Virus record (IMG/VR): IMGVR_UViG_3300021255_000111
Strand: one strand, 5' to 3'
DNA from: an uncultured virus (IMG/VR IMGVR_UViG_3300021255_000111)
Lineage: Duplodnaviria; Heunggongvirae; Uroviricota; Caudoviricetes
DNA length: 20,000 bases
This document shows positions 4,001 through 19,805 of the stretch, piece by piece. The notes below the pieces were generated by a model that was not told where the DNA came from, did not search any database, and saw only the letters and a program-made list of their open reading frames with translations. Each line of letters starts with the position of its first letter. The first letter of the stretch is position 1. The position numbers were made by a program, and so were the translations under genes.

Positions 4001-5572
4001 GCAGGACAGGACGTACAAAACGCTTCCAACAGAGCCGCCAAGGGCTTGCAGGACTTCGAGAAGGTTCTTGGAAACATCACCTCTGGAACACTCTCTGGAT
4101 TCGCCAATGGTGTTGCAGGAATTATCAGTTCTCTGGCAGGAAAGACGGAGAAAGCCGCAGACGGCCTTGTAGGAGCCATCGGAGGAAAGGCAGGTGGCCT
4201 TATCGGTGCCATTCTGCAAATCATAGATGCACTTGGTGATGACCCTGCAGGATTCATCAGCAACATTCTTGACAAGGTAGCGGACACTATTGATGCGATT
4301 CTCAGTCAACTCCTTACTGATATAGTACCTGCCGTCTTGGAGGGTGTTGGAAAAATCCTCACTTCCATCCTTGATGGTGTGGCCAACATGGTTACGTTCG
4401 GTCTCGCAGGAGATATATTCGGTGGTCTCTTCGGAGGTGGTGGCCATGAGGAAGAGTACAAGAAGGATCTGGAGGACTGGAAATCGAAGATTGAGGCGAA
4501 CACGTATGCCGTTGAGCAGCTGACCAAGAAGATGACCGATAAGACCAAATCGCCATCCGATGCGGCCAGAGAACGTGATGCCGCCCTCTCCGCTCTGCAA
4601 GGACAGATAGCATCGAACAGAGGTTCTGCAGACTTGATAGCAGGAGATTCGGATAAGGGCTATCACTCTTGGTACTACAAGCGAAATGATTCCGGCTTCG
4701 ACTATAACCGCTTCAATAGTGTCCTGGCACAGCACGGCTCGAATACAAGGGTTGGCAATGCGCAGGGTGTCATGGGGCTGTCTGCACAGGATATTCAAAT
4801 CCTTCGCACTTATGCAGGACAGGCATGGGCAGACTACTTCGGTGACGTTGACAGCGAGCGCAATCCTAACGAGATAAAGCAATATCTGGAGGCTATCGGT
4901 GATTTGGCAGAGAAGGATAAGGAAATCATTTCCGAGTTCTATGCCACTCTGACGAACATGACTTTTGAAGACTTGCGTAGCAACTTCAAGAGTAAGATGA
5001 TGGATATGAAGAGTGATGCCAAGACGTTCACTGATGACTTCGCAGAAATGATGACCAGTTCTCTGATGGATTCCATGATGTCAACATCTGGACTGAATGA
5101 GGCTATCAGACAATGGCAGATAAAGTGGGGTAAGGCCCTTGAAGATGATAACAAACTCAGCGACCAAGAACTGGAAGAGTTGCAGAGGGAGTACAATGAC
5201 CTTGTTCAACGCAGTCTGGAGGTTCGTGATGAAGCCGCCAAGATTACAGGCTATACCGATAAGTACGAGCAGGAAGCATCCTCCAAGGGATTCCAAGCCA
5301 TGGGACAGGATTTGGGTGCAGAACTAAACGGACGCTTCACTGCCGTCCAGATAGCAGGAGAGAACATCAGTGCTCAGATGCTTGTTGTCGTTGCCACCCT
5401 CAACAGTATCGCATCCTTCAACCAGTCATCGAACACCGCTGTCATAGAGATTCGTGACATGCTCATCTTCACCAACTCGTATCTGGAGGACGTGGTAAGA
5501 TATGCCAAGTTGCTCTACAGCGACTTTGGCGAGAAACTGGATGATATAGTAAACAACACCAAAAAGTTATAA
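1013..5572 (+). CDS. Phage tail tape measure protein
   Basis: 1519 aa. The N-terminus has the tape-measure domain pattern (FQKLEVAFTTML...AAITPFDL..VADGAKQLLAYG...LGDIAAG...DLRQFQGRGIPI.EELA). The rest is long Ala/Glu/Lys-rich coiled coil with Gly/hydrophobic segments. Confidence 0.93.
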   Translation: MAGIKFDITGDNRNVLQSFNEVQSGVKQMQRQVEDSGASIEDMFKRIGAVAGLTFAGVSAKEFVRNVMNVRGEFQKLEVAFTTMLQSEEKAASLMNQLVKTAAITPFDLKGVADGAKQLLAYGIAADEVNETLVHLGDIAAGLSIPLGDLVYLYGTTMVQGRMFTNDLRQFQGRGIPIAEELAKQFGVAKDKVGELVTAGKVGAEQVKKALMDMSSEGGKFGGLMEEQAKTINGQISNIEDAIDVMFNNIGKQNEGIINTALSGVSTLIENYEAVGKAIASAVAVYGVYKAAIMTVTAMQALQTAGVGALTVAETAHYGWIVLVEKAQKLLNATMLSNPYVLVATAIAGVVAIMMNMKSQQDLINEAEEEYNRKKEEAIAKEEEHKRKIEELLSVAGDEQLSTENRRLALVRLEMQYPSIFKKYDTEAEKLKHILDIKNQIAEIDGKNSVKNKSNELDSVNARIKELQAIRVNRFLSEHGGYVTSGRNRTDKENAELTALLRKRGELQNSISKEQGQSYLANLTGISNDDLQKQINERRNLLAKMQTTEKKYGRVQAGGAKGTYSANELQGQLQILEAEQNKRNEAKYTPAQQKAMAKKALDEAKKALADFDNSTTKYTTAEAEEARKKLTDAVSEAEKEYKKFGGKTGGKKTDPAKTFKQEQRYTDLEAELERKASRDAIDLEHSTRQAEIDAMEEGSKKTIAQIRLDYDRRKEEIDRGYEDLRIRKIEDAKKLWEANPANKDKAFDETTVDTSYTDAERKNYEALLKANETELARSLKAKTDMEIQAIRDYLKEYGTYQQQKLAIAQEYADKIAKAQREGNTTEVNRLRAEQRVTEGDAKARELAGGIDFSAVLTNVGSVAKALAEETYKRVQEYKGTDEYKNSSAESKKAISDLEARLIENGGAGSASPLSAKTWDDVTKAAERYDKALKDLQARTMEHSLAVEARKQAEEQLALTVEGTEEHLDALNAVAEAIKEENATGDAQQQAQGNVQAAGQDVQNASNRAAKGLQDFEKVLGNITSGTLSGFANGVAGIISSLAGKTEKAADGLVGAIGGKAGGLIGAILQIIDALGDDPAGFISNILDKVADTIDAILSQLLTDIVPAVLEGVGKILTSILDGVANMVTFGLAGDIFGGLFGGGGHEEEYKKDLEDWKSKIEANTYAVEQLTKKMTDKTKSPSDAARERDAALSALQGQIASNRGSADLIAGDSDKGYHSWYYKRNDSGFDYNRFNSVLAQHGSNTRVGNAQGVMGLSAQDIQILRTYAGQAWADYFGDVDSERNPNEIKQYLEAIGDLAEKDKEIISEFYATLTNMTFEDLRSNFKSKMMDMKSDAKTFTDDFAEMMTSSLMDSMMSTSGLNEAIRQWQIKWGKALEDDNKLSDQELEELQREYNDLVQRSLEVRDEAAKITGYTDKYEQEASSKGFQAMGQDLGAELNGRFTAVQIAGENISAQMLVVVATLNSIASFNQSSNTAVIEIRDMLIFTNSYLEDVVRYAKLLYSDFGEKLDDIVNNTKKL

Positions 5573-5575
5573 GAT

Positions 5576-6103
5576 ATGGACGAGTTCAGAAAGGAAATAG
5601 ATGGAATACTCAAGCACCATCCAGAGACCTATTGTACCAAGGTAGCAGGCATGGTACGTGACGATAATGTCAGCACGATAGACTTCTTGAAGTTTGTCGG
5701 CATTGGCACCAATCTCATGCTGTGGGTATGGGGAAAGGGAAGCCTGCCAACCTCCATCTACAAGAAGTACAGGGATTTGGTCGCAGAGAGCGGAGTAAGG
5801 CTTTTCTTCAATGAAGTGCCTGCTGACAGTCTGCCTACTGATATTGTTCTTGTTGAGGATGTCAACGGTCTTGACTTCACAGGAACACAGTGTAAGGTTG
5901 TCGCAAGGAACGCCACTGTTATTGTTGAGAACAACCACGTCTGGGGCTATGCGAAATCAACAGTCATTGGCACAGGAGCGTGTGACGCTATCATTGACGA
6001 TGAAAGTCACTTTGTCGGCAAGTCTGACAAGTGCGGCTGTGAGACCTTCGACAGAGCGACATTCTCTGGAAAAGGCTATCATCTACACACGAACAGAAAA
6101 TAA
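5576..6103 (+). CDS. Hypothetical phage protein
   Basis: 175-aa ORF starting 3 nt after the tape measure stop (TAA-GAT-ATG). The C-terminal half has short beta-strand-like repeats. Confidence 0.7.
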   Translation: MDEFRKEIDGILKHHPETYCTKVAGMVRDDNVSTIDFLKFVGIGTNLMLWVWGKGSLPTSIYKKYRDLVAESGVRLFFNEVPADSLPTDIVLVEDVNGLDFTGTQCKVVARNATVIVENNHVWGYAKSTVIGTGACDAIIDDESHFVGKSDKCGCETFDRATFSGKGYHLHTNRK

Positions 6104-6108
6104 CCGGT

Positions 6109-6220
6109 TTCTCAGCGTCTTTCGCTGTTGCGCCCTTACAACTATCCATCCAGAGGATAAAACGATCGCACAGCGGACGCTACGAAGTCCTACGAAGATT
6201 CTAAGAAACATAACATCATA
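6109..6220 (+). repeat. Copy 2 of the degenerate intergenic leader element; forms a long hairpin
   Basis: Collinear with 891-1007. Internal pairing AGCGTC/GACGCT, CGCTG/CAGCG, TGCG/CGCA and an inner TATCC/GGATA stem. Confidence 0.8.
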
Positions 6221-6225
6221 CAACT

Positions 6226-6648
6226 ATGCAAGGAGAGTTGATTATCAATGGCCATGATGTCTATACGGACTATGGCATCAGCATGACACAGCATGGATTG
6301 TCTGCCTTGATGACACCTGCACCGATGAAATCCTTCATCGAGAGCAAGAGCCGTCAGCAACACGGCAAGCGATTCGTGAACAAAGACCCTCGGAAGGATT
6401 CGAGAGAACTGACGCTACCCATCCATCTGACCGCACGTAACAGAAGCCAGTTCTTTGACAGATACTCGCGTTTCTGCGAAGAGATACTGGCAACAGGCTA
6501 TCTGGAAATACGCACCATGTATCAGCCTACAGTCCTGTACCGTTGCCTGTACACATCATGCTCGCAGTTCACGGAGTTTATCACGGAGTATGCCAGTTTC
6601 TCATTGAAGTTGACGGAGCCAGACCCTACGAATAGGGCCATCGAATAA
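6226..6648 (+). CDS. Phage tail protein, putative distal-tail (Dit)-like
   Basis: 140 aa, lying between the tape measure and the large tail protein. Pattern LIING.D...YGI...L.TPAP.K....R...G......R.LTL resembles Bacteroidetes phage Dit-like proteins. Confidence 0.6.
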   Translation: MQGELIINGHDVYTDYGISMTQHGLSALMTPAPMKSFIESKSRQQHGKRFVNKDPRKDSRELTLPIHLTARNRSQFFDRYSRFCEEILATGYLEIRTMYQPTVLYRCLYTSCSQFTEFITEYASFSLKLTEPDPTNRAIE

Positions 6649-6666
6649 TAAATTCCGTTAATTCTA

Positions 6667-6697
6667 TTTGTTATTCAAATAGTTTTTGGTATCTTTG
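6667..6697 (+). promoter_or_regulatory. Bacteroidetes primary-sigma promoter (-33 TTTG, -7 TATCTTTG) overlapped by a palindrome
   Basis: TTTG at 6667-6670, a 19-nt spacer, then TATCTTTG at 6690-6697, matching the TTTG-N19-21-TAnnTTTG consensus. Inverted repeat CTATTTG-ttatt-CAAATAG at 6664-6682. Confidence 0.7.
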
Positions 6698-6713
6698 TCC
6701 CAAGTTTTGCAAG

Positions 6714-9524
6714 ATGATACAGGTAAAGAGACTAAGCGGTGAGACGCTCATCACTCTGGATGCAGTACCAGAGGGCGCATTGGTTCACAGGGAACTGATG
6801 GCAGACCACTATGTGAAGTTGCCATTCGACCTTGATGAGCCTGTGTACCTTCGCCTTGGTGACTATATAGAACTGCCAGACTTCGGCCACTTTGAACTCA
6901 TCTTTCCTTACGCTCCCAAGTTTGACGTGAACACAGGAGCGTATAAGTACGACCTCCAGTTGGATGCGTACTATATGAAATGGAAGAATAAGAAGTGCCG
7001 TTATATCCCAACTGCATCTGCCAGTGAGACCTCGTTTCATCTGACGGCCACTGTTGCTACCCATCTGAATGTCATCGTCAATGGTATCAATGCCGTTGGT
7101 GACCTTGACAGCAACTTCCGCTATAACCAGACAACAAGTTTCCGTTTTGAGTTGAGGAATTTTCCTGCTGACAAGGTGGATGCCGCCAAGTACATGCAGT
7201 ATGACAATATCGACTTCATTACTGCCTTGAACAACCTCGCAGCCCTCTTCGAATGTGAATGGTGGGTAGAGGCCAACACCATCTATTTCGGCAAGTGCCA
7301 GTTGAATGGTGAGGAAGTTGAGTTTGAACTGGATCAGAACGTAGAGGAAATGACCAGTTCCGAGAGCAGTAACGAGTTCGCCACACGTATCATCGCCTTT
7401 GGCTCTACTCGCAACCTGCCATCGAACTACAGGGCGAACCAGTCAGCAGATGTTACCGTCAACGGTGTTGTTCAGAAGAGATTGATGCTCCCTGCATCCT
7501 TATGCCCAAGAGGGTACGTGCAGGATTCCACTGTTGTCAACGAGACTGAAGCTGTCGAGGCCATCGTTATTGATGAGGACATCTATCCGCACGTTGATTG
7601 TGTCGTAAGCCGTATCGAGACATACGAAAAAACCGTTGAGGATGAGGAAACAGGTGAGACAGTCACCAGAACGTTCTACCGTCTCTATGATGGCAGCGGA
7701 TTCAACTTCAGTACTGACATGATTCTGGATGGCGAGACACTGCATATCCTCTTCCAGTCTGGTGCCATGAACGGCATGGACTTCGAGTGCCACTATGACG
7801 ATACCGGGAAGTATTACGAGGTGGTGGCCAACGAGGACTATGGACGTTTCCTGCCAGACACCTCCCTGCATCCAAGCGTGAATGATAAGTTTGTCCTTCT
7901 GAACTGGGATGCCACGAAGATTGCCGAGACAGGTATCATTGATGATGCCGAGCAGGAGTTGTACAGGATGGTATGTGACAAGTTGGAGGACATGAAGATA
8001 GACCCGAACACCTATACGTGTGTCATGCGTTCTGATGAATACTCTGACATGATGGATGAGGAATCCTTCGTCAAGTACGACATCGGTCAGAGGGCAAGGC
8101 TTATCAATCCAACCTATTTCCAGTACGGACGCAGTAGCCGTATTATTGGCTATGAGATAAAACTGGATATTCCTTACGACACCCCGAAATACATTGTCGG
8201 TGAGGCTACTGCCTACTCGCACATGAAGGACATGCAGGGTCAGATTGATGCCATCACGTACAATGGTGTCAGTTACTCCGGCAACGGAAATGGTGGAGGT
8301 TCTGGTATCTACCTCATCACCTCTACAGACACTACACCGTCAAGCGACAGTAACGCCTACTCTGCCAGACGCTCTGACAGAATGTTCCTCAGACGTGACA
8401 GAGCAGATACAGCCTACGGACAGATAACACATGAACAGCGTTCTATCCACAAACAGGGAGCACAGTTCGGTGAGCAGTTTGTTCCTGGCCTTGTTGGTCG
8501 TGGTGGAGCGATAGACGGCAACGGCAACGGTGAAATGCGCTCTCTGAAACTCTGGGAATGGCTGGAAGTGCCAGAGTTGCGTTACAACCGCATCACCATC
8601 TATACAGGAATCCGATGGGACACCTTCGGAGGCGGCATCATTGAAAGCATCACTCCAGACGCACATGGTGGAGAATACGGCTCCGGCACACTGAAACTGG
8701 AGGATGGTGAGATAGGAGCCATCGCTGTAGGTGACTTGTGTATGGGTATCTGGCATGACCAGAGCGGCAATGCTGATGCGAACACCGATGACAACAGAGG
8801 TAACTTCACGTTCGCAGGCTTCAAGACTGTGTATTTCCAGATTACAGGAGTGAGCGGAGCCAACAACCAGAACTTCACATACCTTCTGAGAGGACAGTTG
8901 GAGGGAGGCAACGGCATCCATCCGTTTGTCGGCATGAGTTTCGCAGGACGTGGCAATGTCAGCAACACCCAACGTCAGGCGTTCACCTATACGACAACGG
9001 AGTATTCCTTGTCTCTCACAGGCGTTTCTACTTGGGAATTTCAGCCCCTTAACTACTATGAGATTCGAGGCCATATAGAAGGTTTCTCGATGCCTGCAGT
9101 AGATGCAAGCGGACATACCTACACCAAGGTATTCCACGGCTACGGACAGGTATTCGGCAATGCGTACATCTTCGGCCAGTTAGACACCTTTGAGCGAATA
9201 GGCTACAGAATGTCAATAGAGCAATCTCTTGGAGGCTCTTTGGCTCCTGGCGAAACGGAAGATGTGACCTGCACCATCTTCAACGGCTACGGTGTGAACG
9301 TCACAGACCAGTTCACTCACTTCTCGGTAACGAGGAACACAGGAGATGCGGCCTCTGATGCTGTGTGGAATGCACAACACCAGAGCGTCACCAATCCTTT
9401 CAGAATAAGTTTCAATGACCTCGGACTGGATGGCCTTCATAAGATTATGGCTACCTTCAACGTAGTGGCTACAGATGAGGCTACAGACAATACAGCAAAC
9501 GGACAGGCAAATTATTTCAGTTAA
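6714..9524 (+). CDS. Large phage tail/baseplate hub (Tal-like) protein
   Basis: 936 aa. Motifs ATRIIAFGSTRNLP, SRIIGYEIKLD, SDSNAYSARRS..FLRRDRADTA.G.ITH and IDGNGNGEMRSL....LEVPELRYNR resemble Bacteroidetes phage tail proteins. Located after the Dit-like gene. Confidence 0.7.
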   Translation: MIQVKRLSGETLITLDAVPEGALVHRELMADHYVKLPFDLDEPVYLRLGDYIELPDFGHFELIFPYAPKFDVNTGAYKYDLQLDAYYMKWKNKKCRYIPTASASETSFHLTATVATHLNVIVNGINAVGDLDSNFRYNQTTSFRFELRNFPADKVDAAKYMQYDNIDFITALNNLAALFECEWWVEANTIYFGKCQLNGEEVEFELDQNVEEMTSSESSNEFATRIIAFGSTRNLPSNYRANQSADVTVNGVVQKRLMLPASLCPRGYVQDSTVVNETEAVEAIVIDEDIYPHVDCVVSRIETYEKTVEDEETGETVTRTFYRLYDGSGFNFSTDMILDGETLHILFQSGAMNGMDFECHYDDTGKYYEVVANEDYGRFLPDTSLHPSVNDKFVLLNWDATKIAETGIIDDAEQELYRMVCDKLEDMKIDPNTYTCVMRSDEYSDMMDEESFVKYDIGQRARLINPTYFQYGRSSRIIGYEIKLDIPYDTPKYIVGEATAYSHMKDMQGQIDAITYNGVSYSGNGNGGGSGIYLITSTDTTPSSDSNAYSARRSDRMFLRRDRADTAYGQITHEQRSIHKQGAQFGEQFVPGLVGRGGAIDGNGNGEMRSLKLWEWLEVPELRYNRITIYTGIRWDTFGGGIIESITPDAHGGEYGSGTLKLEDGEIGAIAVGDLCMGIWHDQSGNADANTDDNRGNFTFAGFKTVYFQITGVSGANNQNFTYLLRGQLEGGNGIHPFVGMSFAGRGNVSNTQRQAFTYTTTEYSLSLTGVSTWEFQPLNYYEIRGHIEGFSMPAVDASGHTYTKVFHGYGQVFGNAYIFGQLDTFERIGYRMSIEQSLGGSLAPGETEDVTCTIFNGYGVNVTDQFTHFSVTRNTGDAASDAVWNAQHQSVTNPFRISFNDLGLDGLHKIMATFNVVATDEATDNTANGQANYFS

Positions 9525-11003: not shown

Positions 11004-12041
11004 ATGAGTAAGACAGCAGGTGCGGCTTTCTCCGTCCGCTTCCTTCGTAACGGAGACCAAGTATATGTTACTCGTGACATTCTTCTGAGTAGCGGAGTAG
11101 GTGCCGCATTGTTCCAAGTCGTAGATCCGACAAGCGGTACAGTTGCTCCAGACTGGACGGTAGCGGCCAATCAGCCTATCATCCGTCTTGGTGTGCGCTC
11201 TTCTGCAGGTTATGATGCAGAGATAACAGGTGTGACATGGGCCTATGCAGGAACCACCCTCAACTTCACGTTGGACGGCTCTACATGGGTGACGGCTACA
11301 AACAACAGCAAGTTCCAAGCCAGAATCAATGGCCACTACTACGAACTGAAGATTGTCGGCAACCTCGCCAGTAAGACAGAGGTAGCGAACAAGCAGATTT
11401 CGTATGAGGTCAACTATATCAGCAACGCCATGACCGATAAGGTCAACGGTAGTGTTGATGTTCTTATCCAGACCTCTGGTTCTGATAGCCACATCATGCA
11501 GATAACCACGAACAGGGTTGAACTGGATATTACACACGACACGGCAACACTGACTGCCGTTGGCTACTATGGCACTGAGCCTGTCACTATCGGCTCTAAC
11601 GGCTATACCATCAAGTGGTACCAAGACGGCACAGAGATTGTCGGCCAGACATCGAACACGCTAACCGTCACAAGGGCTATGGTGGAAGGTGGCAGTATCT
11701 TCATCGCCAAACTGTTCCTCAACGGCAATGCTGTTGCACAGGACAGTCAGCGTATCAACGATATTGCCGATGAGTACCAAGTTGCCTACGCTCCCACGAG
11801 TGCAGGAAGTAACTACTGCGGCATAGGCCATAATGCCGTATATACCCTCTCAGTAACCAGAAACGGCAACCCCTTCTCTGGCTCAGTGTCATACGAGTGG
11901 CAGATACTCAACGCTGTTGGGGAGTTGAAGGGCAGTGGTACTGGCCAGACCGTCACCATCACTCCAGACCACTGCTTGGTAGGCAATGGCGAAGGTGCGT
12001 ACCATGCCGATGCTGATGTTCAAGTAACTGCAACATTCTAA
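11004..12041 (+). CDS. Putative structural protein with Ig-like beta-sandwich repeats
   Basis: 345 aa, rich in Thr/Val/Gly/Asn. Ig/PKD-like motifs YTIKWYQDG..I.G..SNTLTVT and SYEWQI.......G.G.TVTIT. Confidence 0.6.
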   Translation: MSKTAGAAFSVRFLRNGDQVYVTRDILLSSGVGAALFQVVDPTSGTVAPDWTVAANQPIIRLGVRSSAGYDAEITGVTWAYAGTTLNFTLDGSTWVTATNNSKFQARINGHYYELKIVGNLASKTEVANKQISYEVNYISNAMTDKVNGSVDVLIQTSGSDSHIMQITTNRVELDITHDTATLTAVGYYGTEPVTIGSNGYTIKWYQDGTEIVGQTSNTLTVTRAMVEGGSIFIAKLFLNGNAVAQDSQRINDIADEYQVAYAPTSAGSNYCGIGHNAVYTLSVTRNGNPFSGSVSYEWQILNAVGELKGSGTGQTVTITPDHCLVGNGEGAYHADADVQVTATF

Positions 12042-12053
12042 CCATATAAAGAT

Positions 12054-13394
12054 ATGAAAGATATTACAAATTCCCCTTTCGTACACTCAATGAGTGACAG
12101 CAACTCCATCTTTGGTAACTTTGGCGGTGCTGTTGGTCAGATGACCATCAAGGAGTTCCGTGAGCACCTCAACGACAATGATGAGGAAGTGTTGAATAAT
12201 CTGGCGTTCTACATTGATGTGAACAAGCCATCAAGCCTTGGCTCTTCGAGAGTTGACGTTGGTGGCAACCTTCACATGAGAGCACTCTGGGAGGCCTCTG
12301 CCGTCTCAGTCATCATGGATGCCAATGGTAACGCCTGCAAGTTGAAGCGTAACGACAACCGCTTCACAGAGGATGGCGTTTCCCTGCTGAACAGTGATGG
12401 CACAGTTATCTCCACCTATGCCAAGTGTGACTTCATGAAGATAGTGCCTATCACCTATGGCCGAGTACAGACAGTTACAGTAGGAGCGACCTCTGTACAG
12501 CGTTTGTGGCTCTCTCTCGTACCACTGCCTGGCGGTCACATCATTCCGCAATTGGTGGTAGGTAAGTTCAAGTGCAGCATCGTTGACGGCAAGTTACGCT
12601 CGTTGCCCGGTATGGTGACAGCTGATTCACGTACAGTACGAGGCTTTTGGGAACTGGCACAGGCACGTTCCAAGAACCACGGCTTGGCCAATCTGGATTT
12701 CCAGAACTACCTCCTGTTCCACATGATGTCGAAGTACGCTTGGAGAGACAGCCAGAACTGTAAAGGCTCTGACAACACCCTCATCTGGGGTGTAGGCCTC
12801 GATGGCACAGAGAGCCATGGTAGCGATAAGTTTGCAGACCAGAGAAATATCAAGACTGGTGCCGTGCTGTCTCTCGGTGACTATGATGGCAATGTTCCTG
12901 TTACCGACAACAACGGTGATACCGTCCATAGCGTCAATGTAGCAGGATTCGCAGACCCTTGGGGTCAGAAATGGGAAATGCGTGGCGGTCTGTGCTCTGT
13001 AGGCTTAGATGTCTATTGTTGGCGCAGTAACATCGTTCCCTCTGGTACTCCTACAGCGGACACCTTCGCAAACATCGAGCATGTTAAGCTGACACGTCCT
13101 ACAAGTGCTGTATGGGCTATGAACATTATTGCCTCAGAAGAGGGCCAAGGTGTCTATATGATTCCGAAGCAATCTATCTCTGGTATCTCTTATGGTGATA
13201 ACTTCTGGTATGCTGATGCAGGTCAGCTGTGGCTCTTTGGCGGTCTCTCGAGCATCGGTGCGTATTGCGGTCTCGCTTCTGCGACCTCGGTCCCCGCTTG
13301 GTCGTCCTCGTACTCGTACCTCTCGGCTCGCCTTGCTTACTATGGAAATATCAATTTTGTGTCTGCTCAACGGCTTGCTGAACTCGCTGCCTAA
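12054..13394 (+). CDS. DGR target protein, CLec/FGE-fold (Mtd-like), putative receptor-binding protein
   Basis: 446 aa. Contains VGKFKCS....KLRSLPG and GFADPWGQKWEMRGG (a variant of the G..N.WGN.WEW.DG CLec motif). The C-terminal VR LWLFGG...G..CGL.....AWS......SARL matches the TR. Confidence 0.9.
   Translation: MKDITNSPFVHSMSDSNSIFGNFGGAVGQMTIKEFREHLNDNDEEVLNNLAFYIDVNKPSSLGSSRVDVGGNLHMRALWEASAVSVIMDANGNACKLKRNDNRFTEDGVSLLNSDGTVISTYAKCDFMKIVPITYGRVQTVTVGATSVQRLWLSLVPLPGGHIIPQLVVGKFKCSIVDGKLRSLPGMVTADSRTVRGFWELAQARSKNHGLANLDFQNYLLFHMMSKYAWRDSQNCKGSDNTLIWGVGLDGTESHGSDKFADQRNIKTGAVLSLGDYDGNVPVTDNNGDTVHSVNVAGFADPWGQKWEMRGGLCSVGLDVYCWRSNIVPSGTPTADTFANIEHVKLTRPTSAVWAMNIIASEEGQGVYMIPKQSISGISYGDNFWYADAGQLWLFGGLSSIGAYCGLASATSVPAWSSSYSYLSARLAYYGNINFVSAQRLAELAA
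13224..13337 (+). repeat. DGR variable repeat (VR)
   Basis: 114-bp ungapped alignment to 13521-13634 (offset 297). There are 19 mismatches, each opposite an A in the TR. Covers codons 391-428 of the target. Confidence 0.97.
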
Positions 13395-13417
13395 GCAACC
13401 TGCCCCAAGCAGGTTGC
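13395..13417 (+). promoter_or_regulatory. Hairpin/cruciform downstream of VR (putative DGR target-recognition element)
   Basis: GCAACCTGC-cccaa-GCAGGTTGC, a perfect 9-bp stem with a 5-nt loop, immediately after the target stop codon. No U-tract follows. Confidence 0.7.
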
Positions 13418-13520
13418 AAGCGGACCTAAACGAAAATAAACGATAAATAGAAGGTAATCTGAAATAACATCAACAAACAAAAAACCATTCATTTCTCCGA
13501 TGGTAGGTAGACAGGTATTG

Positions 13521-13634
13521 AAGCTGTGGCTCTTTGGCGGTAACTCGAACAACGGTGCGAATTGCGGTCTCGCTTATGCGAACTCGAACAACGCTTGGTC
13601 GAACTCGAACTCGAACATCTCGGCTCGCCTAACT
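13521..13634 (+). ncRNA. DGR template repeat (TR)
   Basis: Contains 10 AAY triplets in the target frame (9 AAC, 1 AAT). All 23 invariant codons are free of adenine. Lies 213 nt upstream of the RT start. Confidence 0.95.
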
Positions 13635-13847
13635 ACGTTATGCAAGAAAACAATTAGGGTGTTAGTACTGCGTCATGGGAAAGCACCCGAGTACCTGGAG
13701 CCTCGGCAGCGTGTGCGTATGTATAGCACGTGTTTGGTCGGAACAACATTCACCTTGCGCAGTGTACGGTCAGCCGTCCTGCCCGTGGTGTTAGTAAGCC
13801 AGAAATGGATTTGAACGCTTCACATAGAAACGATAGCAAGAGACAGA

Positions 13848-15284
13848 ATGAAGAGAACTGGTTACGTATATGAGCAGATGGCCGTCTGGGAAAACATCGT
13901 TGAGGCTGAAAAGGTCTCTACCAGACGTAAGATGCGGAATCCCGGTGTGCTGCGTCATGTCGGGAACAGATGGAGTAACCTCGTTGAGATACAGCAGATG
14001 GTCTTGGAAGGCAGAATGCGCACTGATGAATATCAGCATGAGAAGCGTATCAGCGGACAGGACAAATTGCGTGACATAGCGAAGTTGCATTTCCATCCCT
14101 CCCACATCGAACACCAACTGCTGACGATGGCCGGTGACAGGAGAATTGACAGGACGTTCATACGACATACATACGCAAGTCGTAAGGGATATGGCCAGAT
14201 AGCATGTGCGTTGCAAATCAAGAAACTCACCAGAAAGTACAGGGGTGTTGTACGTTGGTACGGACAGGGTGATATTTGCAAGTATTACGATAACATTCAG
14301 CACTGCTTTATCCGAAAGGATCTGGAACGCCTGTTCAAAGACAAGAAGTTTGTTGATGCCTTCATGGAGCCGTTTGAGCGGTTCTCGAAGGATGGGAAAG
14401 GAATACCCCTCGGCATCCGTCCGAGCCAGAGCATAGGCAATCTGGAACTGTCAGAGTTCGACCACTTTATGTTGGAAGAGAACAAGGCAGAGGACTACAA
14501 GCGTTATCTTGATGATTTCCTCTTCACAGGAGCCACCAAAGGAGAGGTAAAGAGGAAGATGAAGCGTGCCGCCAAATTCCTCGCCAAACGAGGATTGAAG
14601 TTGCACGTTCCCAAGATACACCGCATCGAGGAAGGTATTGACATGATGGGCTTTGTCTACTATGGTGTCAAGAATGACATGTTCTTGCGCAAGTCAGACA
14701 AGAAGCGTTGGCTGAAGCACCGTAGCAGGGTGACCAACAAGAAGCGTATCAAAGAACTTGATGATGCCGCTTGGGGTCTTGTCAAATGGGGCAACAGCCA
14801 CTGCAAACGCCTATGGTGTAAGGTTACTGGAAATGAATTACCAAGACGCAAGGATATGGGAGTAAAGATTAACAAGACTGGCATCAAGCGTACTGAGCAT
14901 ACCGATGCCAAAGGTATTCCATTCATCGAGGAACCCAAGATAGGCATGGAAATGCTCATCAAGAACGGCAGGGCTGTGGAGTGTGACCGTTGGCTGAAAG
15001 GCATCAAGACATCGCACGGAGAAGGTCGCTATGCCCTTCGCATCCGTTTTATGGGAGAGTGGTATAAACTTATTGTCAATGCCACGGAAATAAAGAACTT
15101 CCTGGATGATATGGAGCGTAACAAGGTTTCTCGCCTTATGATAGCCTTCAAGGATGACGGCAGCAGACACTACTCCGTCAATGATGAACTGACAGAGATT
15201 CTGGAGGTCGATGGCCGCAAGGTCACTGAGCGGAACGGAAAGGCTGTCTTTGAGGACACTGGAGAAGAAGTATTATTTCAATAA
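13848..15284 (+). CDS. DGR reverse transcriptase with C-terminal extension
   Basis: 478 aa. Motifs YASRKGYG, GDICKYYDNI, GIPLGIRPSQ (DGR-type LGxxxSQ), RYLDDF (YLDD at 14505-14516), GIDMMGFV and the thumb-end WGLVKWGNS. About 142 extra residues follow. Confidence 0.95.
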   Translation: MKRTGYVYEQMAVWENIVEAEKVSTRRKMRNPGVLRHVGNRWSNLVEIQQMVLEGRMRTDEYQHEKRISGQDKLRDIAKLHFHPSHIEHQLLTMAGDRRIDRTFIRHTYASRKGYGQIACALQIKKLTRKYRGVVRWYGQGDICKYYDNIQHCFIRKDLERLFKDKKFVDAFMEPFERFSKDGKGIPLGIRPSQSIGNLELSEFDHFMLEENKAEDYKRYLDDFLFTGATKGEVKRKMKRAAKFLAKRGLKLHVPKIHRIEEGIDMMGFVYYGVKNDMFLRKSDKKRWLKHRSRVTNKKRIKELDDAAWGLVKWGNSHCKRLWCKVTGNELPRRKDMGVKINKTGIKRTEHTDAKGIPFIEEPKIGMEMLIKNGRAVECDRWLKGIKTSHGEGRYALRIRFMGEWYKLIVNATEIKNFLDDMERNKVSRLMIAFKDDGSRHYSVNDELTEILEVDGRKVTERNGKAVFEDTGEEVLFQ

Positions 15285-15304: not shown

Positions 15305-15703
15305 ATGATTACAGGTATTTTACAGAGACGTTGGCAGGTTACTCAGCCTGCGGTGTATGACAAAGAGACACGTATCGTTTGTCTTGACATCACTCCAGAG
15401 GTGCAGAAGGATGCGGACGGTAATGACCAGAACGGCTATTCCTTCATTCCTGTTGAGATTGACAGTCAGATAGACTACGGACACATCAAGTCTCAGCTGA
15501 TAGAGGCAGGCTTCGCACAGAAGGATGAGTTCGGCCTACTGATGAACACTGTCGACAACCTTGTTGAGGCTGTTGCAGGAGCAAGCAGTTGGGCCAAGTT
15601 CAAGGAAGCCCTTGACAACGATGTTATCCTCAAGTTCGGTGAGTTCTGTGCATTCAGAAACATGTGCGCAGAAGCCGCCCATGAAGTAATGACACACTAT
15701 TAA
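15305..15703 (+). CDS. Hypothetical phage protein (acidic, not Avd-like)
   Basis: 132-aa ORF between the RT and the tail fibre gene, with an A-rich leader and a helical-looking C-terminal half. Confidence 0.75.
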   Translation: MITGILQRRWQVTQPAVYDKETRIVCLDITPEVQKDADGNDQNGYSFIPVEIDSQIDYGHIKSQLIEAGFAQKDEFGLLMNTVDNLVEAVAGASSWAKFKEALDNDVILKFGEFCAFRNMCAEAAHEVMTHY

Positions 15704-15713
15704 GAATTAGGCT

Positions 15714-18700
15714 ATGAAGATAAAAGGAGCGTTCACTGTCAGATGGGCAGCGCAGGATGGTAAGGACGGAAGGTCTTACGAGAGGCGGTACTTATCCCTC
15801 TCGGCATCTACCGTGCCGTCAGCATACAACCCGAATACGAATATCTCAGTATGGTCATCGACTATCACGGCCATTGATGAGAGTAAGCGTTATCGTTTCG
15901 TCACAGAGCGTAGTTCTGCTGACGGTGGTTCATCGTGGTCGCAGTGGAGCACTCCGCAGATTGATGCGTATCTCGCTGAGAACGGAACATCTTTCGCTGT
16001 GAAAGGTGCTGCAGTAGGTGTCATAGCGTATAACGGAAGCCTCCCTGCAAGTCCAGAGGTAGGTGTTTACCTTGACCAGAGGCCAAACACCAGTGACATC
16101 AACGAGTATAACGGCTCTTCATGGTCTGGAAGCAATGTTGCCATCGGTGATGCCTATATCATGGACGGCAACCTGTTTGTCAAGTCAAGAGACGCATCCG
16201 CATCTGCCAGTGTCCTTCGTTGGAAGGATGCCGGCAGTATTCGTGGCCCGCAAGGCCCAGACGGAAAGGATGCTGTTTTCCTTGACTTGGATAACGAGAA
16301 TGACAGTATGCTGTATGATGGCACAGACAATCCCATCACCTCTCCAGTAGAAAGTCAAGCGACTATCTACAAGGGCGCAGGAACGGTGTCAAGCGGAGTT
16401 ACGTTCAGAATTATCAGCGTCAGCGGAGCCACTATGATGAATAGCGGTAATGCCACGTCTGACAGTTACTCCAGAGATGACTACCCTTCTGCCGTCTGGA
16501 TCAGTACGTCTGGCAAGGTCACTGTTAACGGACTGACATCTTCGCAGTGTGAAGTCCTTGTTGGCGGTGTCTTTAACGGAGAGTTGTACACGCAGAGGCT
16601 CACCATTAAGAAGCTGAAGGGTGTCGATAAGTACGAACTTGTCTGCACCCCTTCCGCTATCACTTACAACAGCACGACAGGCCAGAATCCGCAGCAGAAT
16701 GTGAACATCAAGGTTTACAGGACTGGGCAGGATGGCGTGAGAAGCCTTGTTCAAAGCCTCTCCACCTATGGACTGCAACTGAGATACTACTGGATAACCA
16801 ATGGTTATGACGCAGGGCCTACGAACATCACTGATGGTACTGCAGAAGGTTACTACAATGGCGGTGTAACAAAATCTGTCTATGCGAACTATTACACTGC
16901 ATACCGTTACGAGGTTCTGAACTCTGGAGGATTGATACTCGATTCCGAGACAGTCCCCATCAGTAAGGTCAGTGACGGCATCGGCACTCCTGGCGCATCG
17001 GCAAAGTCGATTTACAAGAACTCGTTCATGAAGCCCTCTACACCTACAGGCTCTTCACCTTCTGGATGGAACAACAACCATTCTGAGCAGGCTGAGATAA
17101 ATGTGCAGGCGCAGGGTGACTGGTATCTTACTGATGACGGATTCCTTACCGCACCGCTCATCGGCAATGGCCAGACAAGTGTCGAGACGCTTTCATTCAT
17201 CACCACACAGGCGAACCAGAGCGTGTTCCTCAGACTGAGGTGTAACACAAGCAGTAATGACAGGGTGTATGTCGGCAATGTCGATTCCGTTGCACCCACC
17301 ACGAACTACTACAGGGAGTTTCACGGCAGTCATCAAGACAGCGGTGATTTGTCTATTTCTGTAGCGAACGCAGGTCTGCACTTTATCAGCATCGCATACG
17401 TCCGAGGTGCTTCTGGCACATCTGAGTTTGTCAAGTTCATCTGTGGCAGTATGTATGTCTGGAAGAGTGACGCACTGACGTTCAACACGAACGGCACTGT
17501 TGCCACATGGAGTACACCTTACAAAATCTCTGGAAAGGATGCAGCCTTCACCACTGCCGTCAAGACTAACCTGTTGCTCCAGTCCAGTTTTATATCCACC
17601 AGAATGGATAAGTGGACCGAGAAGAATGGTGCTACTGCAGGAGGCATAGAAGGACGTAATTGTTATACTGGCTCTCCAGACATCACCACAGCCATGAAGG
17701 AACTGTTGAGACAGTCCATGTATGACCCAGACGGAGAGAAACGCCTGTTGGCGAATACTTGGTACACTCTTTCCTTCTGGGCAAAGGCTCCTGCGTATAT
17801 CCAAGTAAACAAGTACATAACGTCTATCAATTATGGATTCGCACAACAGATATGTTACTTCCAAGAAGGTGTTACTAATACCGTTACCTTCAACGGCTAC
17901 TGTTCCTCTGCTGCACGAAACGCAGGAAAGGAACTGAGGGTCTTTGTCTATAATGAAGATTGGTCATGGTCTGTCAGTGCCGCCATCACCTCTACTGGGG
18001 CAGCGACAAACTCTATCTCGTTCGTTGTTCCGGCCACAGGAGAGTACCGCATAGAAGCATACGTCTATAAGTCTGGAGATCATACCCCTGTAAGCGGCCA
18101 GACATGTACTCTGAACTGGTATCGTATCAACAGAGGCATGAGGATGGTGACATACCTCTATCCATCCAACAGCAACAGCCAGACGGATGACACGTGTATA
18201 GATGTTGGCGCAGGTCGTATAATAGACGGCATCCCTACAGGAAGTTCAAGTCCTACCGACAATAATGTTGAATGGCAGCTTACAGAGGAATGGACGAAGC
18301 ATACCGTTACGTTCAAGACAAGGAGTTATATCCCGAGCAAGATTCAGAGTTTCTTGGTACGTATGCACCAAGCATCTAATGGCATATCTATCTGTATGCC
18401 TAAGATAGAGCAAGGTACTGTCGCTACCGACTACTGCACAAACGATTCTGATATTGCCGATTTCGCTGCCGATGAGACAGGATTCCCTAACGATAGGAAT
18501 ATCTGGGTAGATGCTCCAGATGAGCCGTATATCTGGAATGAGGAAAGACGTGACTATATAGCCTATGAGATAAACGGAGAGTGGAAGCGTTACTTCGTCA
18601 AGTCAAAGGGCATGACCGTTCCAAACGGTGTCGCTCCATCCGCAGGAGGCAATAGTTACTGGTCTGAGGGTAGCAGGATAAACACCCTGCTTGTTAACAC

Positions 18701-19805
18701 CATCGTTGGTGCCAATGCTGAACTGAGGTTTGCAAAGACTAACAGGCTGCTCGTTGTGAAGTCTGACGGAAGCACTGTCGCTGCAGGCCTTGGAGGCGCA
18801 GAGGGTGGAGATTACGACTACCCACTATGGATTGGCGCAACGTATGGCAACAGGGAGAATGCACCGTTTAAGGTAAACCTCCTTGGCCACATGTTTGCGA
18901 CACGCGGATATATTGGTTCATGGGTCATCAAGGAACAGACATTGTATTCTCAGCTTGGTATTCTCAACGGCAAGGTGTCGGATGATTACGAGAATGAATC
19001 CTTCATACCGAACCTTACGTTGAATGCCATATCTGGAGAACTGAACGCAGGCAACATTCTTAAGATTGATGGTGCCGGAATGCGTATGTTTGATGGTAAA
19101 AGAACCTGCCTGCGTATGACAAGTAGCAGAATCTCATCACAGATAGACACCTCTCCATCTACAGGCAGCGGAACAGTCAGCGGCTCATATTCGCAGTCAC
19201 TCTATCTGCCGATCAGTACGCCTGGTTATACGAGCAGTAACACATGGGTGTACAGATTCGACCTCGGCCAGATGTACACCAACAGTACGATACGTGTTCG
19301 GAATGCGACCATCAAGTGTACGTTCCCTACAAGTGTCGGAAACTCACGCCTCTCGTACCGTGGTGGCACTGTTGCCGTCTATCTACAGGCAGGAGGTGTC
19401 AAGAAGTTCCTGCTTGCATCACAGAATATAGCGTATGGTGCGACTTCTGTTGACGTAACACTGTCTTTTGATTCGAACATCACCATTGACGGTAGTACCT
19501 ATCCAGAACAGCATTACTATATCTCTTATGAGGTGAAGGCGCAATTCAGTTCAAGCGGTGGCAGCTCTGGTTCCAGTGAGAACAAGTCAATCATTGTCTC
19601 GAACTCTCAATATAACTATTCCAGAGCAATCGAGACACTGCTGTTGTTCGGTACTAATGGCATCTTCAACCGCCAGAGTACAGACACTTATATGTGGAAC
19701 ACGGAAGAAGGATTCCTGGTTAGGAAAGGAAGTTATGCACTGCGTGTAACCAATTCTGGAATACAGAAGTCCACTGACGGAGGCAATTCATGGAGTAACC
19801 TATAA
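15714..19805 (+). CDS. Large tail fibre / host-specificity protein with a carbohydrate-binding-like domain
   Basis: 1363 aa, rich in Ser/Thr/Gly. Short collagen-like and linker motifs (DGKDG, GPQGPDGKD). CBM-like pattern NLL..S.F...YTLSFWAK...LTEEWTKHTVTFKT...ICMPKIEQGTVATDY. Also APFKVNLLG and GYIGSWVI motifs typical of fibres. Confidence 0.8.
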   Translation: MKIKGAFTVRWAAQDGKDGRSYERRYLSLSASTVPSAYNPNTNISVWSSTITAIDESKRYRFVTERSSADGGSSWSQWSTPQIDAYLAENGTSFAVKGAAVGVIAYNGSLPASPEVGVYLDQRPNTSDINEYNGSSWSGSNVAIGDAYIMDGNLFVKSRDASASASVLRWKDAGSIRGPQGPDGKDAVFLDLDNENDSMLYDGTDNPITSPVESQATIYKGAGTVSSGVTFRIISVSGATMMNSGNATSDSYSRDDYPSAVWISTSGKVTVNGLTSSQCEVLVGGVFNGELYTQRLTIKKLKGVDKYELVCTPSAITYNSTTGQNPQQNVNIKVYRTGQDGVRSLVQSLSTYGLQLRYYWITNGYDAGPTNITDGTAEGYYNGGVTKSVYANYYTAYRYEVLNSGGLILDSETVPISKVSDGIGTPGASAKSIYKNSFMKPSTPTGSSPSGWNNNHSEQAEINVQAQGDWYLTDDGFLTAPLIGNGQTSVETLSFITTQANQSVFLRLRCNTSSNDRVYVGNVDSVAPTTNYYREFHGSHQDSGDLSISVANAGLHFISIAYVRGASGTSEFVKFICGSMYVWKSDALTFNTNGTVATWSTPYKISGKDAAFTTAVKTNLLLQSSFISTRMDKWTEKNGATAGGIEGRNCYTGSPDITTAMKELLRQSMYDPDGEKRLLANTWYTLSFWAKAPAYIQVNKYITSINYGFAQQICYFQEGVTNTVTFNGYCSSAARNAGKELRVFVYNEDWSWSVSAAITSTGAATNSISFVVPATGEYRIEAYVYKSGDHTPVSGQTCTLNWYRINRGMRMVTYLYPSNSNSQTDDTCIDVGAGRIIDGIPTGSSSPTDNNVEWQLTEEWTKHTVTFKTRSYIPSKIQSFLVRMHQASNGISICMPKIEQGTVATDYCTNDSDIADFAADETGFPNDRNIWVDAPDEPYIWNEERRDYIAYEINGEWKRYFVKSKGMTVPNGVAPSAGGNSYWSEGSRINTLLVNTIVGANAELRFAKTNRLLVVKSDGSTVAAGLGGAEGGDYDYPLWIGATYGNRENAPFKVNLLGHMFATRGYIGSWVIKEQTLYSQLGILNGKVSDDYENESFIPNLTLNAISGELNAGNILKIDGAGMRMFDGKRTCLRMTSSRISSQIDTSPSTGSGTVSGSYSQSLYLPISTPGYTSSNTWVYRFDLGQMYTNSTIRVRNATIKCTFPTSVGNSRLSYRGGTVAVYLQAGGVKKFLLASQNIAYGATSVDVTLSFDSNITIDGSTYPEQHYYISYEVKAQFSSSGGSSGSSENKSIIVSNSQYNYSRAIETLLLFGTNGIFNRQSTDTYMWNTEEGFLVRKGSYALRVTNSGIQKSTDGGNSWSNL

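Follow-up and report, generated by a model that had tools for sequence, protein, structure and literature searches.

In the diversity-generating retroelement (DGR) of Bordetella phage BPP-1 (order mtd-avd-TR-brt), a tail-fibre gene carries at its 3′ end a variable region (VR) whose differences from a nearby template region (TR) are all at adenines. The TR is rich in AAY codons (Y, pyrimidine), the VR ends in a GC-rich initiation of mutagenic homing site (IMH) that differs from its counterpart in the TR (IMH*), and a GC-rich inverted repeat follows the VR, with none after the TR. In the sections cited here, the survey of Wu et al. (2018, PMC5758913) reports a GC-rich inverted repeat after the IMH in 34% of DGRs and also in that of Bordetella, no accessory gene in 29% of DGRs, and one reverse transcriptase (RT) lineage that goes without avd. 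The LoVEphage-type phages and Hankyphage are Bacteroides or Phocaeicola phages with described DGRs (PMC8525569, PMC6199706 and PMC12629997, for the sections cited), and 12 of 28 Bacteroidota prophage species are reported to carry DGRs that target tails (PMC12629997, same limit). We analyzed 20,000 nucleotides of an uncultured Caudoviricetes virus (IMG/VR record IMGVR_UViG_3300021255_000111), here called the window, and predict that positions 12,054 to 15,284 form a DGR that shares each of these BPP-1 features apart from avd.

The best explanation of the locus is a complete accessory-gene-free DGR, consisting of a target gene with its VR, a TR, a spacer RNA and an RT, among the tail genes of a LoVEphage-like siphophage of Bacteroidales from the gut or rumen. 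We put the probability that this DGR is functional and recently active at about 0.92. It is a new, divergent member of the known DGR class, working as the Bordetella phage DGR does, and without avd. Target, TR and RT follow one another on one strand (Table 1), and the TR comes directly after the target, unlike in BPP-1. The avd gene of the BPP-1-type Architecture B is missing, and the cassette fits the accessory-gene-free architecture A1 (a TR-RT core with the target adjacent) of Wu et al. (2018). It also fits what the cited sections of that survey describe for accessory-free cassettes, for the avd-less RT lineage, for RTs with C-terminal extensions and for inverted repeats.

Table 1. Predicted features of the DGR cassette and its surroundings, in window coordinates
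Feature	Position	Strand	Details
Tape measure	1013-5572	+	Pfam TMP_3, E 1e-24
Dit-like gene	6226-6648	+	from Pfam/PHROG scans
Tal-like gene	6714-9524	+	from Pfam/PHROG scans
DGR target gene, 446 amino acids (aa)	12054-13394	+	tail-fibre-like; N-terminal part family-specific; TaqVP-like from about residue 160
VR	13224-13337	+	residues 391-428 of the 446-aa open reading frame (ORF); core 13245-13322, 12 codons, residues 398-423
IMH-like 3′ end of VR	13321-13337	+	GC-rich 13-mer 13321-13333, then TGCT (AACT in TR); putative function
GC-rich inverted repeat	13395-13417	+	perfect 9-bp stem, 5-nt loop, directly after the target stop codon
TR, non-coding	13521-13634	+	mutagenic core 13542-13619 with 22 adenines; IMH* 13618-13634
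Structured spacer RNA, 213 nt	13635-13847	+	between TR and RT start; consensus fold
Spacer helices	13657-13662/13683-13688; 13668-13670/13676-13678; 13754-13758/13836-13840; 13786-13791/13817-13822; 13799-13801/13806-13808	+	consensus fold
DGR RT core, residues 1-335 (fingers, palm, thumb)	13848-14852	+	RVT_1, E 4e-11; best match 8ub7_A
RT C-terminal domain, residues 336-478	14853-15284	+	isoelectric point (pI) 6.4; absent from the Bordetella RT
Acidic 132-aa ORF	15305-15703	+	pI 4.55; not Avd-like
1363-aa ORF	15714-19805	+	residues 789-937 adhesin-like

Compared base by base, VR 13224-13337 and TR 13521-13634 match in a gapless alignment of 114 bp except at 19 positions, and the TR-side base is A at all 19. 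The TR copy has 26 A among its 114 positions, which gives p = 3.2e-16 for such an outcome under random placement. In the core alone, all 16 mismatches fall on the 22 A of 78 nt (p 4e-12). An earlier reading of this DNA, made without database searches (the sequence-only reading), had described this gapless alignment with its adenine-restricted mismatches, and our comparison confirms it. Every one of the codon changes that it listed (AAC to CTC, AGC, ATC, ACC, GTC, CCC, TCC and TAC) is present, as are its ten AAY codons in the TR (nine AAC and one AAT, in the frame of ORF 12054-13394). The VR is in frame at the 3′ end of a coding gene and the TR is non-coding. There is no further VR-like copy on either strand within the window. 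A mechanical ORF of 104 aa (13500-13814, +) crosses the TR into the spacer. Only the 41 residues that repeat the VR give it a match to PHROG 5302 'tail protein' (E 8e-8), and gene callers may list it, spuriously, as a small tail protein.

The same earlier reading expected an IMH/IMH* pair. The pair is there: both repeats contain the GC-rich stretch TCTCGGCTCGCCT (13321-13333 and 13618-13630) and then diverge, with TGCT in the VR and AACT in the TR. Not all 19 mismatches reflect mutagenesis. The three at 13224, 13334 and 13335 are fixed differences, at the boundary or between IMH and IMH*, because across 121 family proteins Q391 is nearly invariant and L427 and A428 are invariant. Those at 13334 and 13335 (TGC versus AAC) are the IMH-versus-IMH* difference and are identical in all seven genomes aligned, and the remaining 16 mismatches lie in the core 13245-13322. 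The repertoire given earlier, 15^10 (5.8e11), is correct for the AAY codons but counts nothing else. The TR core also holds mutable TAT and ATC codons, with which the peptide repertoire comes to 15^10 x 4 x 4 = 9.2e12, without stop codons.

In PHROGs the target has a match to family 5302, 'tail protein' (E 1.3e-15), and it is 31% identical over its full length to gp23, 'tail protein', of the LoVEphage-type Phocaeicola phage PV4-TP1 (E 1e-51). In the ESM Atlas its neighbours are clusters that bear the name 'tail collar fiber protein'. A profile built from 62 diverse relatives (23-59% identity) matches the PDB chain 5vf4_A (E 5.6e-13). This chain is TaqVP, the variable protein of a Thermus aquaticus DGR, which has an FGE-type C-type-lectin fold and its VR at residues 341-381 (10.1101/432187, in the sections cited). 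One stretch of the match spans chain residues 64-266 and covers the body of the C-type-lectin domain; a second aligns the VR region of the window to residues 342-383, VR to VR. TaqVP differs in belonging to a cassette that has avd and no known tail context, and in lacking the N-terminal region of about 160 aa found in the target. We conclude from this homology that the target probably has a C-type-lectin fold. Pfam has no family for the window protein, and one of the 62 diverse relatives had a Pfam match, to a PTR repeat; neither FGE-sulfatase nor Mtd families were found in these 62. Searches of the PDB gave a chance match with phmmer for the target itself and nothing with a profile of 121 close relatives.

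Position and analogy make it likely that the target is the receptor-binding protein. The upstream tail module (1013-9524, +) consists of co-oriented tape measure, Dit-like and Tal-like genes (PHROG 9959, 6305/33 and 38044, the last with a weak Pfam Prophage_tail match). The sequence-only reading was thus right to place the DGR in a tail module, and the target is itself a homologue of a 'tail protein'. In the sections cited, a preprint on Bacteroides DGRs (10.1101/2024.11.15.621889) describes prophage variable proteins that are most similar to TaqVP and suggests that they are receptor-binding parts of tail fibres. By the same analogy, the target may be the tail-tip adhesin for host-range switching that was proposed earlier. 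The DGR could instead diversify another virion-surface or accessory protein (for decoration or glycan binding) or an intracellular protein, so that diversification would not be for host-range switching. This would suit a protein that no Pfam family or solved structure matches directly as a whole, whose names 'tail protein' and 'tail collar fiber' are annotators' labels, and which has a larger adhesin-like ORF (1363 aa) just downstream that could be the main fibre. We consider it unlikely, given that the gene stands in one co-oriented block behind the tail genes, that synteny is the same in PV4-TP1, that the TaqVP-like Bacteroides prophage proteins are placed as likely tail-fibre receptor binders in that preprint, and that tail-targeting DGRs occur in Bacteroidota prophages at the frequency reported above.

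Evidence for recent activity comes from relatives and from metagenomic samples. Of 8000 candidates scored in a search for the target family, 732 proteins reached E <= 0.001, and the 120 best of these (65-93% identity) were aligned with the target. The 11 most variable of the 446 columns across 121 proteins are residues 398, 400, 401, 404, 411, 413, 414, 418, 420, 422 and 423, and in the TR each of the 11 codons has an A in its first or second position. The 14 A-codons average 2.72 bits of entropy, the 24 other VR codons 0.48. Residue 409 (TR codon TAT) ranks 17th in column entropy.

Six viral contigs (L001-L006) encode RTs 70-95% identical to that of the window, each with a VR/TR pair. Their TRs are 100, 100, 99.1, 93.8, 93.8 and 93.8% identical to the window TR, while identity is 69.5-97.4% in the 5′ part of the target gene, 67-95% in the RT gene and 80-86% in the VR. 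In the closest relative, L001, identity is only 85.8% in the VR, against 97.4% for the remainder of the target gene. Its VR differs from that of the window at 16 of 112 positions, every one a TR-adenine site, and the two TRs are identical.

In sequencing run X1, contigs are continuous on both sides of the VR, and precisely at 13216-13342 they fork into two alleles of 127 nt. One of them has a depth of 9.9 and 0 differences from the window, the other a depth of 3.22 and 9 differences, and the flanks have a depth of 13.6-15.3. Five of the 9 differences in the minor allele are listed (13252, 13264, 13284, 13306 and 13312), and all five are TR-adenine sites. Three runs from other studies (X2, X6 and X15) each contain the whole 3.2 kb in one contig with 66-126 differences from the window. 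Among the 40 differences listed of 268, those inside 13224-13337 are at TR-A sites in 12 of 13 cases (the exception is 13337), and none is in the TR. The adenine-restricted VR polymorphism with an invariant TR that the sequence-only reading proposed to look for is thus seen, within the limits of contigs and related genomes, in the X1 alleles, L001 and the 121 proteins.

Run X1 may be the source sample. The locus was found in animal-gut and sheep-gut samples. In two RNA libraries it is present as one contig (X15) or as 46% of sampled words (X16), which records presence and not transcription. In X1, X2, X6 and X15, other long contigs match only the TR/VR (13523-13630), with 5-15 differences and unrelated flanks. 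The same communities therefore hold other DGR cassettes on a similar scaffold.

A wider scan with the RT alignment found 41 loci, six of which are the contigs L001-L006. Two have too little upstream DNA, and all 39 others have a VR/TR pair, the two repeats 245-553 bp apart and upstream of the RT. Mismatches are restricted to A in 16 of these loci, 21 have 1-3 other mismatches, and two (L032 and L046) have 10-12 others. L002 has three and L004 two non-adenine mismatches, all with T in the TR and G in the VR. There are 1-3 mismatches at TR thymines in L002:4387-4498, L004:4354-4466, L010, L013, L020, L024 and others, and several loci at 48-50% RT identity share one mismatch at a G site. These could be low-level non-adenine errors or drift of the TR since the last homing. 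L032 and L046 (VR 1769-1892, TR 2095-2218) have only 9 A mismatches beside the 10-12 at T, G and C, and their TRs have 17-20 adenines versus about 34 in neighbours. They may be decaying cassettes or pairs in which donor and recipient were wrongly assigned.

Such mismatches (3 in L002, 2 in L004, 10-12 in L032/L046) are also what decaying copies show, and contigs do not measure ongoing turnover directly, so the window could hold a fossil DGR in which the parts are recognisable, retrohoming has stopped and the VR differences are old inherited diversification. We consider this very improbable for the window. Its RT ORF is intact, has the catalytic motifs and is under purifying selection (ratio of nonsynonymous to synonymous substitution rates, dN/dS, 0.14-0.20 versus L001 and L002). 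Its own VR/TR pair has 0 non-A mismatches, the closely related L001 differs at 16 VR sites that are all adenines with an identical TR, and two VR alleles sit on identical flanks in one sample.

The RT ORF (13848-15284) encodes 478 aa. Its translation contains LGIRPSQ at L188-Q194 and YLDD at Y220-D223, the two intact motifs noted in the sequence-only reading. Pfam gives the generic RVT_1 family only (E 4e-11). With phmmer the best PDB match is 8ub7_A (328 aa; E 4.4e-16, query residues 4-323), followed at a distance by a group II maturase (1.7e-7). An AlphaFold model of the RT was made from 49 sequences, with a mean predicted local distance difference test score (pLDDT) of 85. Foldseek matches it to 8ub7 with E 3.4e-18 and TMt 0.89. 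VIA-align superposes the two with Z 32.5, a root-mean-square deviation of 2.1 A and 320 of 328 residues aligned, and the next chain, the best non-DGR RT, is a group II intron RT with Z 23.9. The PDB title of 8ub7 is 'Diversity-generating retroelement (DGR) ribonucleoprotein reverse transcriptase'; it names only a DGR reverse transcriptase, which we take to be that of the Bordetella phage (bRT). Group II or retron affinity, which had been named in advance as evidence against a DGR, was not what we found, as 8ub7 is nearest by both sequence and fold. We conclude that the enzyme is a DGR RT. That it should be a group II intron, retron or defence RT next to an unrelated duplication is hardly credible: an RVT_1 core is common to all prokaryotic RTs and NCBIfam gives weak matches to TIGR04416 group II RT/maturase (58 bits, cut-off 300), Drt3a (37, cut-off 200) and retron St85 (20, cut-off 235), but all of these are far below their cut-offs, the fold match to 8ub7 and the SQ motif point to a DGR, positions 13300-13900 contain no intron or retron RNA family, and ordinary duplication does not give A-only mismatches at p 3e-16.

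R75 and L188 of the RT align with R74 and I181 of bRT in the phmmer alignment. These bRT residues are named as promoters of adenine mutagenesis in the sections of PMC7826257 cited here, and the window RT has Arg and Leu at the positions occupied there by Arg and Ile. It differs from the BPP-1 enzyme in length (478 versus 328 aa) through an additional folded C-terminal domain, and identity is only about 20%.

The C-terminal domain comprises 143 residues beyond the thumb and is predicted with a pLDDT of about 83-93 from residue 361 to the end. It is kept, including its length, in full-length RT relatives, and is under purifying selection (dN/dS about 0.17). Relatives of the RT that include this extension occur in genomes of Prevotella, Rikenellaceae, Bacteroidaceae and Porphyromonadaceae, and one relative, L051, is in the genome of an isolate of Prevotella sp. 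We found only chance-level sequence matches in Pfam and the PDB (the single sequence against both, a 19-sequence profile against the PDB). In fold searches with the whole RT model the matching rows cover residues 1-340 only, and the ESM Atlas returned scores of 0.80 or below, to unnamed viral clusters. A likeness to MutS domain I, suspected from a short motif and a remark by Wu et al., was unsupported and was dropped. In the cited sections of that survey a weak MutS_I likeness is reported for three RT extensions; it was not found in the window RT. The RT gene is a mosaic relative to L001 (window 13848-15284 versus L001:3806-5239): the synonymous rate, dS, is 0.015 for residues 1-335 and 0.51 for the C-terminal domain. 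This jump indicates a recombination breakpoint near 14850, at the domain boundary.

The spacer between TR and RT is more conserved than the flanking genes, with 82-98% nucleotide identity between the six relatives and the window. A consensus fold from 21 loci (RTs 45-77% identical to the window RT) has 28 pairs. Compensatory changes occur in 15 of the 28, and 94.9% of cells are paired. Controls fall short of this: 0 of 500 column shuffles reach the observed covariation, and slid partners are 34-43% paired. An Rfam scan of 13300-13900 at E <= 1 found no family, including no intron or retron RNA. By analogy, we read the spacer as the counterpart of the Sp region of the Bordetella (BPP-1) DGR RNA, the region that provides the priming site.

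The inverted repeat at 13395-13417 begins 57 nt after the VR, a spacing that sets it apart from the BPP-1 arrangement. Its predicted free energy is -11.2 kcal/mol (z -4.25), and 0 of 200 shuffles were as good. GC hairpins of different sequence occupy the same place in L002 and L003, and there is none after the TR. This makes the repeat a candidate target-recognition hairpin or cruciform.

We predict that an avd gene is absent, though a very divergent Avd is conceivable. None of the 12 window ORFs scanned matches the Avd Pfam family (23S_rRNA_IVP). In five related phage records, of which three are 96-100% complete, PF05635 gave no match at E <= 1; as a control, this search hit 3 of 14 genomes. 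Architecture A1 is defined by the absence of avd, HRDC, MSL and CH1 genes. Pfam, PHROGs and NCBIfam gave no accessory family in these libraries, which apparently have no models for MSL and CH1. Neither the gap between VR and TR (126 nt) nor that between TR and RT (213 nt) leaves room for a gene. We considered the 132-aa ORF that follows the RT (15305-15703) as an accessory factor and rejected it. Its product is acidic (pI 4.55), whereas Avd proteins have a pI of about 9.5 (PMC5758913, in the sections cited), it is unlike the post-RT ORFs of PV4-TP1 and Hankyphage, and it has nothing below E 0.17 in PHROGs.

Phages of the LoVEphage type, such as PV4-TP1 (PQ571302), are the nearest annotated relatives, and their genes are arranged around the cassette in the same order. 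A VR/TR pair is present in PV4-TP1 too: the repeats are 287 bp apart and mismatched at 16 A and 1 T, and the TR visibly resembles that of the window. No avd is annotated there. The RTs are only about 30% identical, and megablast of 12054-15284 against a phage collection found no nucleotide-level match. The window lineage also differs in where it occurs, in animal and sheep gut with RT relatives in the four Bacteroidales groups named above. The RT region of PV4-TP1/LoVEphage (L008:4878-6421, PQ571302 23164-24707) comes out of tblastn in three pieces, and its annotation is a short RT and two hypothetical proteins. The RT gene in these phages is either frameshifted or miscalled.

Hankyphage (Bacteroides phage p00, BK010646) has the annotated order VR, TR, RT, and all 13 of its VR/TR mismatches are at A. 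Its RT is 28% identical to the window RT across residues 1-419, a span that takes in part of the C-terminal extension. Hankyphage is a Mu-like transposable phage and differs in its very large target, with the VR at residues 2188-2225 (PMC6199706, in the sections cited), in a VR-TR offset of 370 bp, and in a small basic ORF that its authors, in the same sections, name as a possible Avd.

Several points weigh against a functional DGR with a lectin-type receptor-binding target. The sequencing runs were compared as assembled contigs and not as raw reads, and they give no VR variant frequencies. The repeat finder scores non-A mismatches at -3, which favors A-only stretches. No avd is present here, yet to our knowledge the only biochemically studied DGR needs Avd. 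A scan of 13300-13900 found no promoter for the TR RNA, the scan being for sigma-70-type sites, which Bacteroidales do not use. The inverted repeat does not adjoin the VR at its distance of 57 nt and may equally end a transcript; a scan of 13300-13900 for terminators with a T-run found none. The AlphaFold model of the target is poor, with a mean pLDDT of 56 and values below 50 over residues 362-430, and its input alignment (121 sequences at 65-93% identity) was too shallow. Foldseek with this model gave nothing at E <= 0.001 and its matches are meaningless, so the lectin fold and the exposure of the variable residues at its surface are backed by the one profile match and not by the model. The receptor-binding role, and with it any effect on host range, is argued from position and analogy.

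For a functional DGR, we propose the following steps. The RT would bind a transcript that spans the TR and the structured spacer (13635-13847), and would copy the TR into cDNA with random bases opposite the 22 core adenines. The adenine-specific pattern is visible in the repeats, and the enzymology is assumed to be that of the Bordetella phage system. The cDNA would then replace the VR in the 3′ end of gene 12054-13394, with the 3′ limit of replacement set by the GC-rich IMH and perhaps aided by the inverted repeat. In this way 12 codons (residues 398-423) would be rewritten in a ligand-binding surface that is TaqVP-like and probably of the C-type-lectin kind, allowing up to about 9e12 peptides. 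The most likely effect would be a change in the host surface structure bound by the tail fibre.

Because no Avd is present, priming and mutagenesis must work without it. One possibility, which we hold only tentatively and think less probable than its opposite, is that the RT C-terminal domain (336-478) does the job of the Avd pentamer and, with the spacer RNA, positions the TR RNA for self-priming and adenine misincorporation.

The genes around the cassette also appear to be structural. The 1363-aa ORF downstream has no PHROG or Pfam family, and its residues 789-937 share 33-35% identity with the 'major tail protein extension' domains found in Lactococcus and Lactobacillus phages. It probably encodes a large adhesin-bearing tail or fibre protein, so that the cassette probably has structural genes on either side. 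Just 5′ of the target, a 345-aa ORF (11004-12041, +) has a weak match (E 0.002) over residues 182-225 to a Hoc-like family of Ig-type head decoration proteins. It may contain an Ig-like decoration domain in a tail protein.

Tail-targeting DGRs are already reported to be common in Bacteroidota phages, and the finding itself will therefore not surprise specialists. With it, the tail-fibre DGR of the LoVEphage type is known from more than the Bacteroides phages of the human gut. The 39 related loci give covariation support for the spacer RNA, and the combination of an Avd-less design with a covarying RNA is the aspect worth following. With one protein, one structured RNA and no Avd, the compact cassette is a candidate minimal system for Avd-less retrohoming, and also a candidate for engineering targeted diversification in Bacteroidales. 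If the C-terminal domain does replace Avd, mutagenic retrohoming would have a single-protein route independent of Avd in a widespread lineage of Bacteroidales-phage DGRs.

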